From an uncultured virus (IMG/VR IMGVR_UViG_2609460245_000002) (Duplodnaviria; Heunggongvirae; Uroviricota; Caudoviricetes), in the IMG/VR virus record IMGVR_UViG_2609460245_000002, positions 1 to 64,000 of that record: a stretch of DNA of 64,000 bases. One strand, written 5' to 3'. A model generated the notes under the pieces. That model did no database searches. It saw nothing but the letters and a program-made list of their open reading frames with translations, and was not told the origin of the DNA. Positions 24,944 through 63,288 of this stretch are shown here, one piece after another. The position numbers and the translations under genes are program-made. Positions within the stretch are counted from its first letter, which is position 1; each line of letters starts with the position of its first letter.

Positions 24944-25417
24944 TTAGACATACCAGTCCGGGGCCTTTCTCACAGGAGGTGAGATTGGATCAGGCTTCCT
25001 CTCGATTTTTTCAGGTGCCTCTCCGGGCCACACTTGCCAGCAGTGCCAGATGGTACGTCTCTTGTCATTAGTGTGATCGTACAACACTCCGTCGATGATT
25101 GCAATAGCGTGACCCTTTACCGCGATCCAGAACCGACCTTCAGGGTTTTCCTCAGCAAACTGCCTAAGAGTCTTATCCTTAGCATCCTCCCGGTAGAGCA
25201 TCCGGGTCTAGGGCACCAAGTGTCTGCGTAGCTGAAGCGCTTCTGAGTAGCCCCTTGCCGGTAACCGCGCTTGCACTTCACTTTCAGGTGCTGGTGTGCC
25301 TTTTCATAGGTGGTGTTCCATACGACTGCAAAGCTCACCACCATGCAGTCGTTGGTTTCGCCATACCTACGAGAAGCGTCGAAGAACCTAGGGTAAGGGT
25401 CTTTGAAGGTAGCTTTC
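24944..25417 (-). CDS. Hypothetical protein, frameshifted
   Basis: ETNDCMVVSFAV...GHAIAIIDGVLYD segments in two frames. Confidence 0.45.
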
Positions 25418-25430
25418 GACTCCTCCACGG

Positions 25431-25628
25431 TTACGCACCTACGGTTGGGAAGCAATCTGCAAGAGCTTCGACCTCAAGTTCCCGCGCATCGTCGTCGAAA
25501 TACCCGCAGTCAACGAGCGATGCGTCATACCAGTCCCAGTTGTCAACGCCACCAGCCTCCAGCGCTTGGAGCTTCATACGGTCGCGTAATAGGTCGATTA
25601 GGTCTTCTCGGTAAATAACATGTTTCAT
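25431..25628 (-). CDS. Hypothetical protein
   Basis: LQALEAGGVDNWDWY motif seen in small phage proteins. Confidence 0.6.
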   Translation of the reverse strand: MKHVIYREDLIDLLRDRMKLQALEAGGVDNWDWYDASLVDCGYFDDDARELEVEALADCFPTVGA

Positions 25629-25659: not shown

Positions 25660-25688
25660 ACTCTACACGGATTGCAGAGCTTTGTCAA
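25660..25688 (-). promoter_or_regulatory. Sigma70-like promoter
   Basis: TTGACA-N17-TAGAGT. Confidence 0.7.
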
Positions 25689-25696
25689 GCTCTTGT

Positions 25697-25977
25697 ATGC
25701 AGATAGATCGGTAGTGGAGGCAGACCTGTCCCTAGGCTTGCCATACGGATTTTCCGCCTGAGACATGCCTTTGGTCTACCTCTCGCTCTCATGCAGATAT
25801 ACATATATGCAGATGAGTCGGTGAGCGGGGAACATGGGTTCCTTATAGGCTCTGAGCTTTCCCCTTTCGGGTCGTCGCTGCCCTGTTCTCAGATTCGACT
25901 CAGGTTGCGCTTGCAGCTTTCCTCTTCATACGCTATACTGCTGGCCGGTGAGTGACGTGGACATTTCTCTCCAGCAG
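25697..25977 (-). ncRNA. Structured ncRNA candidate, copy 1
   Basis: Homologous to 57548-57826 with compensatory helices, GAAA tetraloop and its own promoter. Confidence 0.75.
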
Positions 25978-25984
25978 AGACCTC

Positions 25985-54308: not shown

Positions 54309-54383
54309 TGGTGCCCCATTCCTGACTTGAACAGAATTCGCCGGGTTACAAAGCCGGTGCATCACCATAAATGCTTAAAGGGC
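54309..54383 (-). tRNA. tRNA-Thr(TGT)
   Basis: Cloverleaf with encoded CCA. Confidence 0.8.
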
Positions 54384-55851: not shown

Positions 55852-55879
55852 ATATTATCATGAATTTCTTGTTTGTCAA
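55852..55879 (-). promoter_or_regulatory. Promoter within the tRNA cluster
   Basis: TTGACA-N16-TAATAT with TGn. Confidence 0.65.
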
Positions 55880-55950
55880 CCCCCCCTTCATGATAACTTT
55901 TATAGCGCCGGGGAGGTCTGAAAGCAGCGCTACCTTCGTCAGTCCCCTAG

Positions 55951-56029
55951 CTCTCTCACTATTTGGCCGCCATAGACCGGCCTTAAGTGACCGGGTAGGG
56001 ACTCGAACCCTAACCAAATAGCAAAAGAG
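55951..56029 (-). ncRNA. Circularly permuted tRNA-like RNA (YrlA-like topology)
   Basis: 16-bp closing helix, T arm, loop-closed acceptor-like stem, GG D-like loop. Confidence 0.6.
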
Positions 56030-56039
56030 ATTCTTAATT

Positions 56040-56124
56040 TGGTGGCCCCGGAGGGACTTGAACCCTCAATCCTCTCGGCGTCAGTTTCTAAGACTGATGT
56101 GTATACCAATTCCACCACAGGGCC
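56040..56124 (-). tRNA. tRNA-Leu(TAG)
   Basis: Cloverleaf with variable arm, CCA. Confidence 0.9.
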
Positions 56125-56130
56125 TTAATT

Positions 56131-56220
56131 TGGCAGCGAGTAAAGGAGTCGAACCCTCACCGCTCATCGCAGTGGCCTAGTTTTCTAGACTAGTTCCCGA
56201 CCTACTCAGGGCTACTCGCT
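56131..56220 (-). tRNA. tRNA-Ser(AGA)
   Basis: CTAGT-CTAGAAA-ACTAG, long variable arm, G73, CCA. Confidence 0.75.
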
Positions 56221-56245
56221 AAGTATTTCTTGATCTGATAAGTGT

Positions 56246-56274
56246 ATTAAAACATGAAAAATTCAGTTTGTCAA
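56246..56274 (-). promoter_or_regulatory. Promoter within the tRNA cluster
   Basis: TTGACA-N17-TTTAAT with TGn. Confidence 0.6.
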
Positions 56275-56294
56275 CACTTAAAATCACTTATTTT

Positions 56295-56382
56295 TGGCAG
56301 TGAGCAGTGGTCTCGATCCACATCCGCGCTAGCAGACGTACTCCTTAGCAGGGAGCCTCAGAACCTATCTGATTTACTCACT
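56295..56382 (-). tRNA. tRNA-Ser(GCT), atypical T loop
   Basis: CTCC-CTGCTAA-GGAG, variable arm, T loop ATCGAGA, CCA. Confidence 0.7.
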
Positions 56383-56387
56383 AAAAT

Positions 56388-56464
56388 TGGTTGAACGGGT
56401 GAGACTCGAACTCACTATAAGTCTGGTTAAAAGCCAGATGCTGATCCACTTTAGCTTCCGTCCA
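56388..56464 (-). tRNA. tRNA-Lys(TTT)
   Basis: Cloverleaf, CCA. Confidence 0.85.
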
Positions 56465-56471
56465 TCTAATT

Positions 56472-56546
56472 TGGCGCTCATACTAGGATTCGAACCTAGA
56501 CCTTACGGCTTAGAAGACCGTTGTGCATCCGTTACACTATACGAGC
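56472..56546 (-). tRNA. tRNA-Arg(TCT)
   Basis: Cloverleaf, CCA. Confidence 0.88.
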
Positions 56547-56556
56547 AATTGGCGTC

Positions 56557-56585
56557 ACTATACAGGAGACCTTCTCTCCTGTCAA
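56557..56585 (-). promoter_or_regulatory. Promoter with palindromic spacer
   Basis: TTGACA-N17-TATAGT; ACAGGAGA-N5-TCTCCTGT. Confidence 0.65.
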
Positions 56586-56593
56586 CACTAATT

Positions 56594-56670
56594 TGGCGGG
56601 CCGACTCCGATTCGAACAGAGAATACGAGGATTTGGAATCCAGTAGGTTGCCAATTACGCTCACCGACCC
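56594..56670 (-). tRNA. tRNA-Trp(CCA)
   Basis: Cloverleaf with imperfect anticodon stem, CCA. Confidence 0.75.
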
Positions 56671-56751
56671 TTAATTCTGGAGGACACTTATTACTCGCTG
56701 TCCTCTGAGCGAGACACATTCCTTGTCGGGTGAATGTTCTTTTACTACATT

Positions 56752-56825
56752 TGGCAGCCGCTGATGGGATCGAACCATCATCTCCAGATTCAAAGTCTGG
56801 CGTCCTACCATTGAACGAAGCGGCA
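56752..56825 (-). tRNA. tRNA-Gln(TTG)
   Basis: Cloverleaf, CCA. Confidence 0.88.
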
Positions 56826-56830
56826 ATTAA

Positions 56831-57155
56831 TCAAAACGCGAGAACTACTCCGGGAGTCTTGTCCTCTTCAGTGTTCTCATTATCTCCTGATTCTGTTCCT
56901 TTTGCAAGCTCTTTTTTGAGTGCAATGTCAGCTTTGTAGTAAGCGACGAACATATCAGAAAGCTCTTTTCTTGAGCTTGATTCTCATTTGTAGAGAAACC
57001 TCAGGATTGTCAGATTGCTCTTGTAGGAACCTAATGTTCTCTGCAAAGCTCTTCTTTAGAAGTCTGAGTCCTGCTTTTAGGTCTGTTTGAATGATACCCC
57101 GGGCTTCTAGCTCGGCATTCGTAGGGCGACCGCCCTTGTTTCTTTCTTGAGTCAT
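56831..57155 (-). CDS. Probable terminase small subunit, frameshifted near 56965
   Basis: KGGRPT N-terminus; second frame continues to an acidic tail; first gene of the late strand. Confidence 0.5.
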
Positions 57156-57194
57156 ATTAAATCCTCTGAAGCTTTGTAAGCCCCATATACTCCG

Positions 57195-57222
57195 ATTATA
57201 GCACGAAATCTCCTGTTGTCAA
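57195..57222 (-). promoter_or_regulatory. Promoter of the late/tRNA operon
   Basis: TTGACA-N16-TATAAT with TGn. Confidence 0.75.
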
Positions 57223-57486: not shown

Positions 57487-57547
57487 AGAAATTCCTTATG
57501 GGTTGATTGATGGGTTATCTGTGGTATGTGTATCAGGAGAACACCCC

Positions 57548-57826
57548 ATGCAGATAGATTCGGCTAGGGAAGGATAGAGTCGTCCCAAGGCTCGCCATAC
57601 AGAATTTAATCTGCCTAAGACGTGCCTTGGCTCTATCCAATTCCTCTTACTCATGCAGATGAGTTCGGTGAGGGGCAGCATGTAGGCTGCATCGGATTGC
57701 TGTCATTCCGCTTTCGCGTCGTCTCCACCCTTTAACAGCATTCGAGTTCAGGTTGCCCTTGTGGATTCCTCTTCATAGGCGCTAGGCGTGGGCCGGTGAG
57801 TGCTTTCAGACATATCTCTCCCACGC
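57548..57826 (-). ncRNA. Structured ncRNA candidate, copy 2
   Basis: Homologous to 25697-25977 with covarying helices. Confidence 0.75.
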
Positions 57827-57835
57827 TGAATATTG

Positions 57836-57913
57836 ATAATACCACAGATTTCCTCTATGTCAAGCCTTTACCAGAACAAAATGGGTTGACATTCCTGAGA
57901 AACGTGGTATTAT
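57836..57913. promoter_or_regulatory. Divergent promoter pair
   Basis: Minus TTGACA-N16-TATTAT (57863-57836); plus TTGACA-N16-TATTAT (57886-57913). Confidence 0.7.
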
Positions 57914-57947: not shown

Positions 57948-58414
57948 ATGCAAGTTATCAATATCGTAGAATACAACCCTATCGTCTGGCTTCGCTCGAT
58001 TCACGCCCACATGAAGGAAGGTTTCCGTGTCGTTCGGTCGATTGAAGGCTATCCTGTGTACGGTACCCTCTGTCAAGTGCAGATGTTCCGGCAGGAAGGC
58101 GTCAGCCTGAGATTGAAAAAGAGCTTGACGGCAATGAGGTCATTGTGCAAGAATGGGACGTTTTCAGCCTTCTGATGGGCATGCAAAATGCTTTCGATCA
58201 AGGTTTCCGCATTGATCTCGAAGACCCTCATTTCGCCAATATGAATTTCGCTCTCAAGTCTGTCAAGATGGTCCGAGAAGGCGCAGAGAAGCAGACTGAG
58301 GAAAAGTCTACAGAAGTAGCTAAGGAAGCTCCTGTAGAGGAAGTCCAAGAGACTGAATCGGAAGATAAACCAAAAACCCGCCGTCGTCGTACTACAAAGG
58401 AGAAAAGTGAATGA
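57948..58414 (+). CDS. Hypothetical protein, frameshifted near 58110
   Basis: Two ORFs with similar GFR motifs join across an A run. Confidence 0.55.
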
Positions 58415-62083: not shown

Positions 62084-63288
62084 GTTATTTTCAACGGCTG
62101 TATGGACTCGACAAGAAAGGCGGGTTCAAGGAGTGAACTGTAGAGGTGATCGGAGAGGAAGACGGTAGCTTCAATATTGTCGTGAAATACGGCAAAGAAC
62201 ATGGAGCCATGACCTCTCAGGTTACCAACATCCGAGTTGGTAAGCAGAAACGCTCTGTAGAGGAGCAGGCCGTGTCTGAGGCTCAGTCCAAGGTGAGCAA
62301 GCAGTTGGACAAGGGTTATCGTGCAACCAAGGAAGAACTCAACGATCTCCCTGTTATGGCTATGCTCGCAAAACCGCTTGATCCCGCTAAATACAAAGAG
62401 GGGTATGGCTCTCCTAAACTAGACGGCCTGCGTTGCATGGCTAAGAAAGCCAATGGAGTAGTTACGCTAGCGTCTCGCATGGGTAAACCTTACAATGTAC
62501 CGCACATCATCAAAGAACTCGAAGAGATCATGCAAGAGGGTGATGTGTGGGACGGCGAACTGTACGTCCACGGTGAGGTGCTGGAGGATATCAACTCGGC
62601 GGTCAAGCGAGAGGATGCCTACGATAAGTGGATGAAGGCTGAGAAGGCTCTTGACGCCTACGCTCTAGAGAACGGAGAGGAGGAGTATGATCGTCTCCTG
62701 AATGAAGTGGACAGCACGTCCTTTATTTACGGTCTTCGTAAGCGGATGGAATTTCACGTATTCGATATCGTGAAAGAAGGCTTGACATTCAAGGAGCGTC
62801 TGGTAGACTTCCAGTTCAAGGCTGCGACTGTTGCCGGGATCGGTAAAATTCGCTTCGTCGAGTACGTATTCTGCTCTACTTTCGAAGACCTCAAACGCCT
62901 TCACGACGTGTATCGTCAGAACGGCTATGAGGGCATCATGTGGCGTAGCCCGGAAGGGCTGTACGAGTCTGGTAAGCGTTCCAGTGGACTCCAGAAATAC
63001 AAAGAGTTCTTCGATATGGAAATGCAGATCGTGAACTACGTGGTGGACAAGAATGGAAACGCTGTTCTGGTGGTGTTCGACCCTGTGCCTCAAGAGATGC
63101 TTGAGGTGACGTATGGTGACTTTGAAGCCCGTAAGGACCAGATCACTAATTTTGAGAACTATCGGGGTAAGTGGTTGACTGTGCAAATTCAAAGTCGTTT
63201 CAAAAAGACCTTGCGTGCTCAGTTCCCAACTGGTAAACTAATTCGCGCTGGCCGGGTAATCGGCGGTGTATTTGTCCCTGAAGAATAA
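62080..63288 (+). CDS. ATP-dependent DNA ligase; in-frame TGA at codon 19
   Basis: KLDGLR, DGELY, FHVFD, EGIM and KYK motifs. Confidence 0.9.

Follow-up and report, generated by a model that had tools for sequence, protein, structure and literature searches.

The DNA analyzed here, positions 1 to 64,000 of an uncultured Caudoviricetes virus (IMG/VR record IMGVR_UViG_2609460245_000002; 64,000 nucleotides (nt), hereafter the window), carries two copies of a structured RNA, both encoded on the minus strand. Copy A (25692–25980, 289 nt) is the paralog on the side of an RNA ligase gene, and copy B (57543–57829, 287 nt) is the paralog on the side of a transfer RNA (tRNA) cluster; they match a covariance model of the RNA with 231.8 bits (E 6.6e-65) and 222.5 bits (E 2.8e-62), respectively. 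Comparative analysis of the sequences establishes the two copies as members of a genuine, widespread family of structured RNAs in Pakpunavirus-like phages that is absent from catalogues. Covariation resolves two predicted domains. In the 5′ domain, a terminal helix surrounds two near-invariant strands and is followed by an H-type pseudoknot with the invariant loop AUGAAGAGGAA and by three more helices; the 3′ domain is a rod-like hairpin of about 70–100 nt placed between two direct repeats, of which the first (R1) forms a hairpin and the second (R2) is mostly single-stranded. The family is predicted to be transcribed from the minus strand of the window, starting at or a few bases from the start site of a strong host-type (sigma70) promoter, and its paralogs mark two putative divergent early-promoter hubs, the first next to the RNA ligase operon and the second preceding the tRNA cluster.

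An earlier note, made from the letters of the window, had described two homologous, collinear stretches that share seven conserved motifs. Both observations hold: copies A and B align collinearly with a mean column identity of 76%, and all seven motifs occur in each. The note's attribution of the RNA to a phage is likewise borne out, as copy A and its flanks are 100% identical, in reverse orientation, to Pseudomonas phage PaP1 (HQ832595.1, Pakpunavirus) in a BLAST search of phage records. Across 50,697 such records, BLAST found copy A in 156, all from Pseudomonas phages, and copy B in 178, of which 177 are from Pseudomonas phages and one from a Pectobacterium phage; identity drops to about 70% in Otagovirus, Flaumdravirus, and unclassified relatives. 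A motif pattern scan returned 21 stretches from IMG/VR, 29 from metagenomes, and three from a genome collection. The wide alignment (A2) comprises 41 distinct full-length versions, and the covariance model has 296 positions and 53 pairs, with the pseudoknot helix P3 left out. Run over 70 sources, the model matched 58 places in phage records and metagenomes, corresponding to 46 distinct sequences, which is the outcome of the search of related phages that the earlier note had proposed. Thirteen sources were rejected, 12 of them chance pattern matches (including all three from the genome collection) and the last the sRNA1 locus of phage PAK_P3. A looser pattern applied to IMG/VR returned at least 116 stretches; of 80 loci tested, 78 had no match to the model and are chance hits, one was marginal (E 0.079), and one was a real, divergent member (L160, 149.8 bits). 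The length of the RNA in the family ranges from 259 to 312 nt.

In the RNA sense, the 5′ domain opens with helix P1 (25971–25977 with 25938–25944 in copy A; 57820–57826 with 57786–57792 in copy B), which encloses the near-invariant strands (G)AGAGAUAUGUC and CACUCACCGG together with a small variable hairpin, in many cases with a GAAA cap. In copy A, this first module spans 25938–25977, and the enclosed strands are AGAGAAAUGUC and CACUCACCGG. The pseudoknot region follows (25877–25933 in copy A). Helix P2 (25930–25933 with 25907–25910 in copy A; 57777–57780 with 57755–57758 in copy B, where the 5′ strand was set by hand) encloses the invariant loop AUGAAGAGGAA (25919–25929 in copy A) and the 5′ strand of P3. 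The pseudoknot helix P3 itself pairs 25913–25917 with 25877–25881 in copy A, the latter strand lying inside the P4 loop, and 57761–57765 with 57724–57728 in copy B. P4 (25888–25892 with 25852–25856; 57735–57739 with 57699–57703) encloses the 3′ strand of P3, a GACGAC motif, and the hairpin P5 (25862–25871, GAAA-capped in copy A; 57709–57718 in copy B). In copy A, covariation and RNAalifold both place P4, P5, and P6 (25829–25842) within 25829–25892; the helices of the 5′ domain listed for copy B lie within 57699–57826, and all of these features are on the minus strand.

Downstream of P4, the order of elements is P6, the R1 hairpin, the long rod P7/P7a/P7c, and R2 at the end, again all on the minus strand. 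R1 of copy A (25786–25823) is a hairpin containing the core AUCUGCAU, which is present twice here owing to an AU-rich insertion; R1 of copy B (57649–57670) is the hairpin ACUCA-UCUGCA-UGAGU. The rod, placed by covariation at 25717–25784 in copy A and found at 57572–57638 in copy B, contains a GGGAC bulge and an internal loop of (N)AGG over UAU beside an invariant G-U pair; its conserved strands in copy A are UCAGGC and GUAUGGC. R2 of copy A (25696–25714), which is mostly unpaired, repeats the R1 core AUCUGCAU on the 3′ side, and R2 of copy B (57544–57565) carries the same core AUCUGCAU. Near the apex of the rod (within 25717–25784 and 57572–57638), the internal loop sets a UAUGG strand against (N)AGG and presumably resembles the 11-nt GAAA tetraloop receptor. 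By analogy, it might make a long-range tertiary contact with the small, often GAAA-capped hairpin inside P1.

Support for this fold comes from two alignments. In a MAFFT alignment, which was not fitted to any structure, the 58 pairs of the nine helices contain standard pairs in 92.9% of cells, compared with 34–45% when the partners are slid by 1–3 columns, and changes on both sides occur at 45 of the 58 pairs. The alignment based on the covariance model, which is biased towards nested helices, has 94.9% of 2533 cells paired, against 34–45% with slid partners, and compensatory changes at 47 of 58 pairs. The fold is far beyond chance, because none of 500 shuffles reaches any of five covariation measures with either alignment. 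RNAalifold, given the MAFFT alignment, independently recovers seven of the nine helices (P1, P4, P5, P6, P7, P7a, and P7c), amounting to 42 pairs, 31 of which are compensatory. P1 is paired in 100% of cells with all seven pairs compensatory, and the same is true of the five base pairs of P3, which lie outside the model. In the remaining helices, the fraction of paired cells is 84.4% for P2, 94.4% for P4, 99.4% for P5, 100% for P6, 95.7% for P7, 87.2% for P7a, and 100% for P7c.

These results allow a reassessment of the stems that the earlier note had read from the two copies. Four of its five (P1, P4, P6, and P7) persist in the wide alignment, as does its GAAA-capped hairpin, which is P5, and its proposal that the family is under selection for its fold is upheld by the covariation and by RNAalifold. 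The fifth stem, TGTC/GACA in one copy and CGTC/GACG in the other, does not stand: only 77.3% of its cells are paired, a level reached by 448 of 500 shuffles, and in 33 of 44 sequences the fourth pair does not form. Its 5′ letters pair instead with GGCA/GGCG in the nested helix P7a, where the four pairs concerned are 100% paired and 31 sequences are altered on both sides of the variable pair. The note did not report a pseudoknot, the co-variation of the direct repeats, or the shared synteny. A further candidate pairing, between a CUGAG segment after P2 and CUCA of R1 or R2, was discarded by eye, being uncompensated in the CUGA and CCCA variants.

The strand is decided by wobble pairs. Across the 2533 cells, G-U or U-G pairs occupy 224 and A-C or C-A combinations only 12; since G-U outnumber A-C by this much, the folded strand is the minus strand of the window, as the earlier note had it, and the helices are those of RNA rather than DNA. 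The same asymmetry rules out a plus-strand RNA or a DNA cruciform, for which the folding energy z-scores of the plus strand are +0.43 and −1.20. Single-sequence folding of the minus strand is unremarkable (z-scores of −1.41 and −2.02), and the case therefore rests on the comparison between sequences. Protein-coding sequence, including a peptide repeated across R1 and R2, was also rejected: only 25 of 43 RNAs have R1 and R2 spaced by a multiple of three, and the changes in the helices are compensatory, not synonymous. Short coding sequences annotated over the element in some records differ from record to record.

The direct repeats that flank the rod are identical within an RNA and variable between phages. 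R1, located between P6 and the rod, and R2, located past the rod, share an identical run of at least 7 nt in 42 of 43 distinct full-length RNAs, and they share 11 nt in the divergent L160. The longest shared run averages 10.0 nt, compared with 5.4 nt between R1 and R2 taken from RNAs with different cores. The shared strings occur in 28 forms that represent roughly 20 different cores of 7–13 nt, for example AUCUGCAU, AGCGUCAU, AGUGUCAU, AUCUACGAG, AUCGGCAGAAUG, GUCCAGCGAGAUG, and AUUUUGGAUAG. Among close relatives, single changes occur in both repeats, and three RNAs have a one-base difference between R1 and R2. The two paralogs of PaP1 have the same core, and those of five other two-copy genomes or contigs have different cores. 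The spacing between R1 and R2 is 93–116 nt and is not confined to multiples of three. The two repeats differ in folding: R1 forms a hairpin of −3 kcal/mol or stronger in 39 of 43 RNAs (mean −6.5, versus −3.7 for shuffles), whereas R2 does so in only 18 of 43 (mean −1.8). The R1 region of copy A (25786–25823) carries an AU-rich, partly palindromic insertion with an extra copy of the core; the insertion varies in length among Pakpunavirus genomes and is absent in MAG1, phiMK, and EM, and the region looks slippage-prone. A third occurrence of ATCTGCAT in the window, at 63022–63029, was dismissed as a chance match in ordinary coding sequence.

Searches for a sequence complementary to the R core were negative at every level. 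Inside the RNA, there is no complement at consistent alignment positions. Within 1.5 kb on either side, we found only scattered runs of 8–11 base pairs (G-U included) in inconsistent places, and nine of the 43 RNAs have none of at least 8 base pairs. Genome-wide searches with the 13-nt core of phage XD2 and the 11-nt core of phage KIL1 gave only matches with one or two mismatches (same sense, other DNA strand); with the reversed pattern as a control, the number of such matches was zero in XD2 and three in KIL1. In 13 phage tRNAs, the best run is 7 base pairs, where shuffled units typically reach 8–9. A CRISPR mini-array, or an RNA anti-CRISPR that mimics its repeats, is also rejected. CRISPR direct repeats measure about 28–37 nt and are separated by unrelated spacers of about 32 nt; here, the shared core is 7–13 nt, and the interval of 93–116 nt is a conserved, co-varying hairpin.

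Each copy lies just past a promoter, as the earlier note had seen. The sigma70-type promoter of copy A (26012–25985, minus strand) is a TG-extended TTGACA-16-TAGAGT, whose −10 box ends 7 nt before P1, and a pattern scan places that of copy B, a TG-extended TTGACA-16-TATTAT, at 57863–57836 on the same strand. Each is back-to-back with a plus-strand promoter of a divergent operon. In the family, the pattern TTGACN-N15-18-TANNNT occurs at most 60 nt upstream in 44 of 46 distinct versions, 35 of the 44 with TG. The −10 box ends 6–9 nt before the first base of P1 in 43 of the 44 promoter-bearing versions, so the RNA should start essentially with P1.

The 3′ side is less uniform. No terminator-like site was found directly after either PaP1 copy, so transcripts should run on into the operon; terminator-like sites farther downstream occur at the level of shuffled sequence (4 versus 3.3 and 5 versus 4.8). 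Directly past copy A, a second sigma70-type promoter (TTGACA-17-TAGAGT, 25660–25688, minus strand, from the promoter scan) precedes the next gene. Phylogenetically, the RNAs fall into two paralog groups. In group II, a promoter or a gene comes next, and promoters similar to that past copy A lie directly downstream of several members; in group I, there follows an untranslated, C/A-rich and G-poor stretch (about 10% G) that would, from its composition, suit Rho loading. The first start codon is about 55–75 nt past R2, and the sequence between differs by paralog group. In Otagovirus loci (L003, at 990–1010; L004, L005, L011, L019, and others), we observed a strong AAGGAG about 60 nt past the RNA, then a mini-open reading frame (ORF) of two codons (AUG AAA/GAA UAA), a second ribosome site, and the real gene; the mini-ORF may be a start-stop regulatory device.

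The covariance model found two copies in five of eight genomes searched (PaP1, PAK_P4, KIL1, UAVern, and XD2), consistent with the earlier suggestion that two paralogs are maintained, and one copy each in SYP and in a divergent contig (G001). The model places no third copy in the window or elsewhere in the 91,751-bp genome. In a maximum-likelihood tree, 44 versions separate into the two paralog groups, with one copy in each group for KIL1, UAVern, XD2, and two metagenomic contigs, that is, five of six two-copy cases. This distribution implies that the duplication is older than these genera (the Pakpunavirus/Flaumdravirus split). The sixth case is PaP1, both copies of which fall in group II, copy B on a long branch; its tRNA-side copy may, from the tree, have been replaced or converted.

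The gene neighborhood is shared as well. In PaP1, copy A is flanked by the leftward RNA ligase gene gp079 and the rightward gp080 (divergent), and copy B by the leftward gp043 and the rightward gp044/gp045 (divergent), beyond which come 12 annotated tRNA genes and then the large terminase. KIL1 (Flaumdravirus) has the same synteny: its first copy is back-to-back with a small gene and an RNA ligase, and its second is back-to-back with gp043-like, PhoH, and protease genes and ahead of a tRNA cluster. The RNA ligase operon is back-to-back with one paralog in PaP1, PAK_P4, EM, and KIL1. PAK_P3 (Nankokuvirus) has no match to the model anywhere in its record, the sRNA1 locus included. At 84500–87500 of that record (L070), the gene order ahead of the tRNAs is similar, yet there is no copy by the model, and the annotated sRNA1 and sRNA2 are unrelated.

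Gp080 (65 amino acids, window 25431–25628, minus strand), the first gene past copy A, matches the T7 gp5.9 RecBCD-inhibitor family (PF25708, E 2.7e-12; phrog_6234), although the PaP1 annotation calls it only hypothetical; a gp5.9-like RecBCD inhibitor would be a typical immediate-early type of function. The ligase gp079 contains a PHA02142 OB domain and an RNA_ligase domain. No homology was found between gp080 and gp044, the first proteins downstream of copies A and B. Two genes near the copies, gp081 (phrog_3754; window 24944–25455, minus strand) and gp043 (phrog_5019; window 57948–58414, plus strand), are each one ORF in the PaP1 record and two overlapping ORFs here. For each, the N- and C-terminal halves of the profile hit different ORFs, pointing to frameshifts or sequencing errors in the present genome version. 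The tRNA region after copy B contains several near-consensus sigma70 promoters (window 55852–57222, minus strand), one of them a perfect 12/12 at 57222–57195, and the tRNA cluster should therefore be fed by many promoters, not solely by the one ahead of copy B. Rfam also calls a 13th tRNA at window 54312–54383 (minus strand) with a low score of 36.1 bits, where the PaP1 record lists 12.

The RNA matches no cataloged family. Of the 4227 models of Rfam 15, which include riboswitches, T-box, RNase P, 6S, tmRNA, group I and II introns, self-cleaving ribozymes, GOLLD, ROOL, and HEARO, only 13 tRNAs reach threshold in the window, in line with the earlier note, which had recognized no known riboswitch or ribozyme. 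A permissive scan of copy A gave three chance-level matches (E 0.13–9.1, far below threshold), and a scan of four further members, including copy B of PAK_P4, gave only tRNAs and two chance matches (E about 0.8–0.9). Among phage-borne RNAs, GOLLD and ROOL are likewise highly structured and have no assigned function, and one copy here adjoins a tRNA cluster. However, GOLLD and ROOL measure about 580–800 nt and are in Rfam, whereas this RNA is about 290 nt long, lacks an Rfam match, is promoter-proximal, and has two paralogs per genome.

The RNA is also not described in the main texts of Chevallereau 2016 (PMC4933390), Putzeys 2024 (PMC10914365), Blasdel 2017 (PMC5563952), Lu 2013 (PMC3652863), Henry 2015 (PMC4309531), or Zhao 2017 (PMC5377924). 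In their main texts, Lu 2013 reports PaP1 to lack long repeats, Henry 2015 describes 41-nt promoter repeats only, and the intergenic regions were not probed in Zhao 2017. Among the closest published systems are non-coding RNAs of PAK_P3, a related Pseudomonas aeruginosa myovirus; according to the main texts, some derive from 5′ untranslated regions and some lie near tRNA genes, and ncRNA1 and ncRNA2 are late, derived from 3′ untranslated regions, and without a start site of their own (PMC10914365, PMC4933390). They are not homologous to the RNA described here, the model of which has no match in the PAK_P3 record. Transcript data are indirect: assembled contigs of four RNA libraries from one study contain the region, but contigs cannot give strand, ends, or level. 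The RNA-seq-informed reference record of PAK_P4 annotates promoters beside copy B and no RNA at either copy.

The RNA very likely performs a specific task in host take-over, because its unpaired strands are invariant, it contains a pseudoknot, and its paralogs are older than the split between genera; ribozymes, riboswitches, and ribonucleoprotein cores are typically conserved to this extent. The roles put forward in the earlier note, a protein sponge, an anti-defence RNA, or a structural or packaging RNA, stay at the level of candidates. As to what that task is, we tentatively favor, with less than even confidence, a cis-acting folded 5′ module of the first early transcripts. The RNA would fold on leaving the polymerase, and its target would be the transcribing complex or the transcript. 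Like HK022 put RNA, it could let transcription withstand Rho or terminators, and it could also cap the 5′ end against decay, with the phage-specific R1/R2 sequence as a specificity or switching element. We prefer this reading because the fold covaries on the minus strand, the RNA starts close to the promoter and is followed by no terminator-like site at either copy in PaP1, the first gene past copy A is gp5.9-like, several genomes hold two copies with synteny shared between PaP1 and KIL1, the tree has two paralog groups, and a C/A-rich tract follows group I members.

The layout, with one element just past each of two early promoters, matches, by analogy, that of putL/putR and nutL/nutR. As in HK022, there are two copies per genome, each directly 3′ of one of two early host-type promoters and forming the folded start of an early transcript, one copy for each of two early operons. 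The put RNAs are about 70 nt long with two stem-loops, whereas the RNA here is about 290 nt long (259–312 nt in the family), with nine helices, a pseudoknot, and flanking repeats, no sequence likeness, and no excess of downstream terminators. The lambda nut sites (boxA and boxB) resemble it in having two copies past early promoters and a conserved part joined to a hairpin loop that varies between phages, here R1. Nut sites are short and need N protein; in contrast to them, the variable sequence here occurs twice per RNA, with the second copy mostly unpaired. Inspection by eye gave no convincing match to the boxA consensus.

Several observations weigh against a cis-acting leader. A second promoter stands directly past copy A and several relatives, making the downstream genes independent of the RNA-bearing transcripts. 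The sequence after R2 differs between the paralog groups, which argues that there is no conserved expression platform. With downstream terminator-like sites at shuffle level, we see no obvious need for antitermination. With about 290 nt, a pseudoknot, and many invariant unpaired bases, the RNA greatly exceeds put RNA in size and elaboration, and the identity of R1 and R2 is without a natural role in such a leader. The silence of the PAK_P4 record at both sites counts on the same side.

The main rival reading is that the RNA stands alone and acts in trans as a decoy, sponge, or scaffold, which we regard as possible though doubtful. It would be the first RNA produced upon infection, whether transcribed independently or released from the 5′ end of the early transcript, and it would bind a host or phage factor through its globular 5′ domain and present R1 and R2 as a twin 'address' read by a partner that varies between phages. 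The second promoter past copy A and several relatives gives the RNA the appearance of a unit of its own, conservation ends right after R2, and the many invariant unpaired bases and the pseudoknot would suit such a role. Identity of at least 7 bases between R1 and R2 in 42 of 43 RNAs, across roughly 20 cores, points to one reader for both sites. As a weak hint, one RNA library contains a contig with its end at 57546, which is two bases away from where the R2 core ends. On the other hand, no terminator or conserved 3′ hairpin marks an end of the RNA, and no complement to the repeats was found in the element, in flanks of up to 1.5 kb, in the XD2 and KIL1 genomes beyond the control, or in the 13 phage tRNAs. 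Contig depth over copy B is not above its neighbors, although contig depth is a poor measure, and the lack of an RNA annotation in PAK_P4 tells against a trans-acting product too.

A sensing leader is unlikely. In this reading, the 5′ domain would serve as the receptor for a small molecule or host factor and set the output of the two early operons via Rho or RNA decay rather than a classical terminator. The RNA is 5′-terminal in two operons, its near-invariant internal-loop strands and pseudoknot recall ligand pockets, and a C/A-rich, G-poor tract lies past group I members. Yet neither a conserved terminator nor a pairing that would mask a ribosome site is present, and about 55–75 nt separate R2 from the first start codon. 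Transcripts from the second promoter past copy A would escape control, no Rfam riboswitch matches, and the neighboring genes suggest no ligand. No riboswitch expression platform was found: neither copy is followed by a terminator-like site, start codons are about 55–75 nt past R2, and the intervening sequence differs between groups.

Just as unlikely, in our estimate, is a programmable element, in which freely evolving twin R1/R2 'addresses' around the rod would recognize a phage-specific nucleic-acid target twice, or would let the RNA copy and re-join itself by template jumping, excision, or circularization with the neighboring RNA ligase. A catalytic or processed RNA is more improbable still. 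In that case, the 5′ domain, or a host or phage nuclease, would cut R1 and R2 at the same position and free the rod, and the RNA ligase might join ends to give a small circle or a spliced leader. Two equivalent cut sites would indeed look like matching sequences on either side of a structured segment, the fold with its pseudoknot is ornate, and an RNA ligase operon is back-to-back with one paralog in PaP1, PAK_P4, EM, and KIL1. However, the ligase adjoins only one of the two paralogs, Rfam gives no match to a self-cleaving ribozyme, intron, or RNase P, the RNA contains no guide complementary to R, and no R1-R2 joint of copy B occurs in the RNA-library contigs, a weak test, as contigs drop rare forms.

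Least probable of all is a DNA-level element, in which R1 and R2 would serve a phage DNA-binding protein as iterons or operators, in an origin or a control region, and the fold of the RNA would be secondary: iterons are identical within a locus and different between phages, as are these repeats of about 12–17 bp, the element lies in a divergent-promoter hub, and extra core copies arose by local duplication in copy A, but the helices are those of RNA on one strand (224 G-U versus 12 A-C cells), there are only two repeats, 93–116 bp apart, and the paralog cores differ in all five two-copy genomes or contigs outside Pakpunavirus, so that two binding specificities would be needed per phage.

Pakpunaviruses such as PaP1, PAK_P1, PAK_P4, and JG004 rank among the therapeutic phages most widely used against Pseudomonas aeruginosa, and the predicted first product from two of the strongest early promoters in these phages is a previously undescribed RNA. 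Its repeats, which match within each RNA and differ from phage to phage, form an unusual evolutionary signature and give experiments a direct point of entry. Should the RNA act on RNA polymerase or Rho, it would represent a new class of antitermination RNA of much greater size. Action in trans would instead make it a new counter-measure or take-over factor of phages. If it is a programmable element, it would define a new class of phage RNA machine that operates in the first minute of infection and is tied to tRNA and RNA-repair genes.

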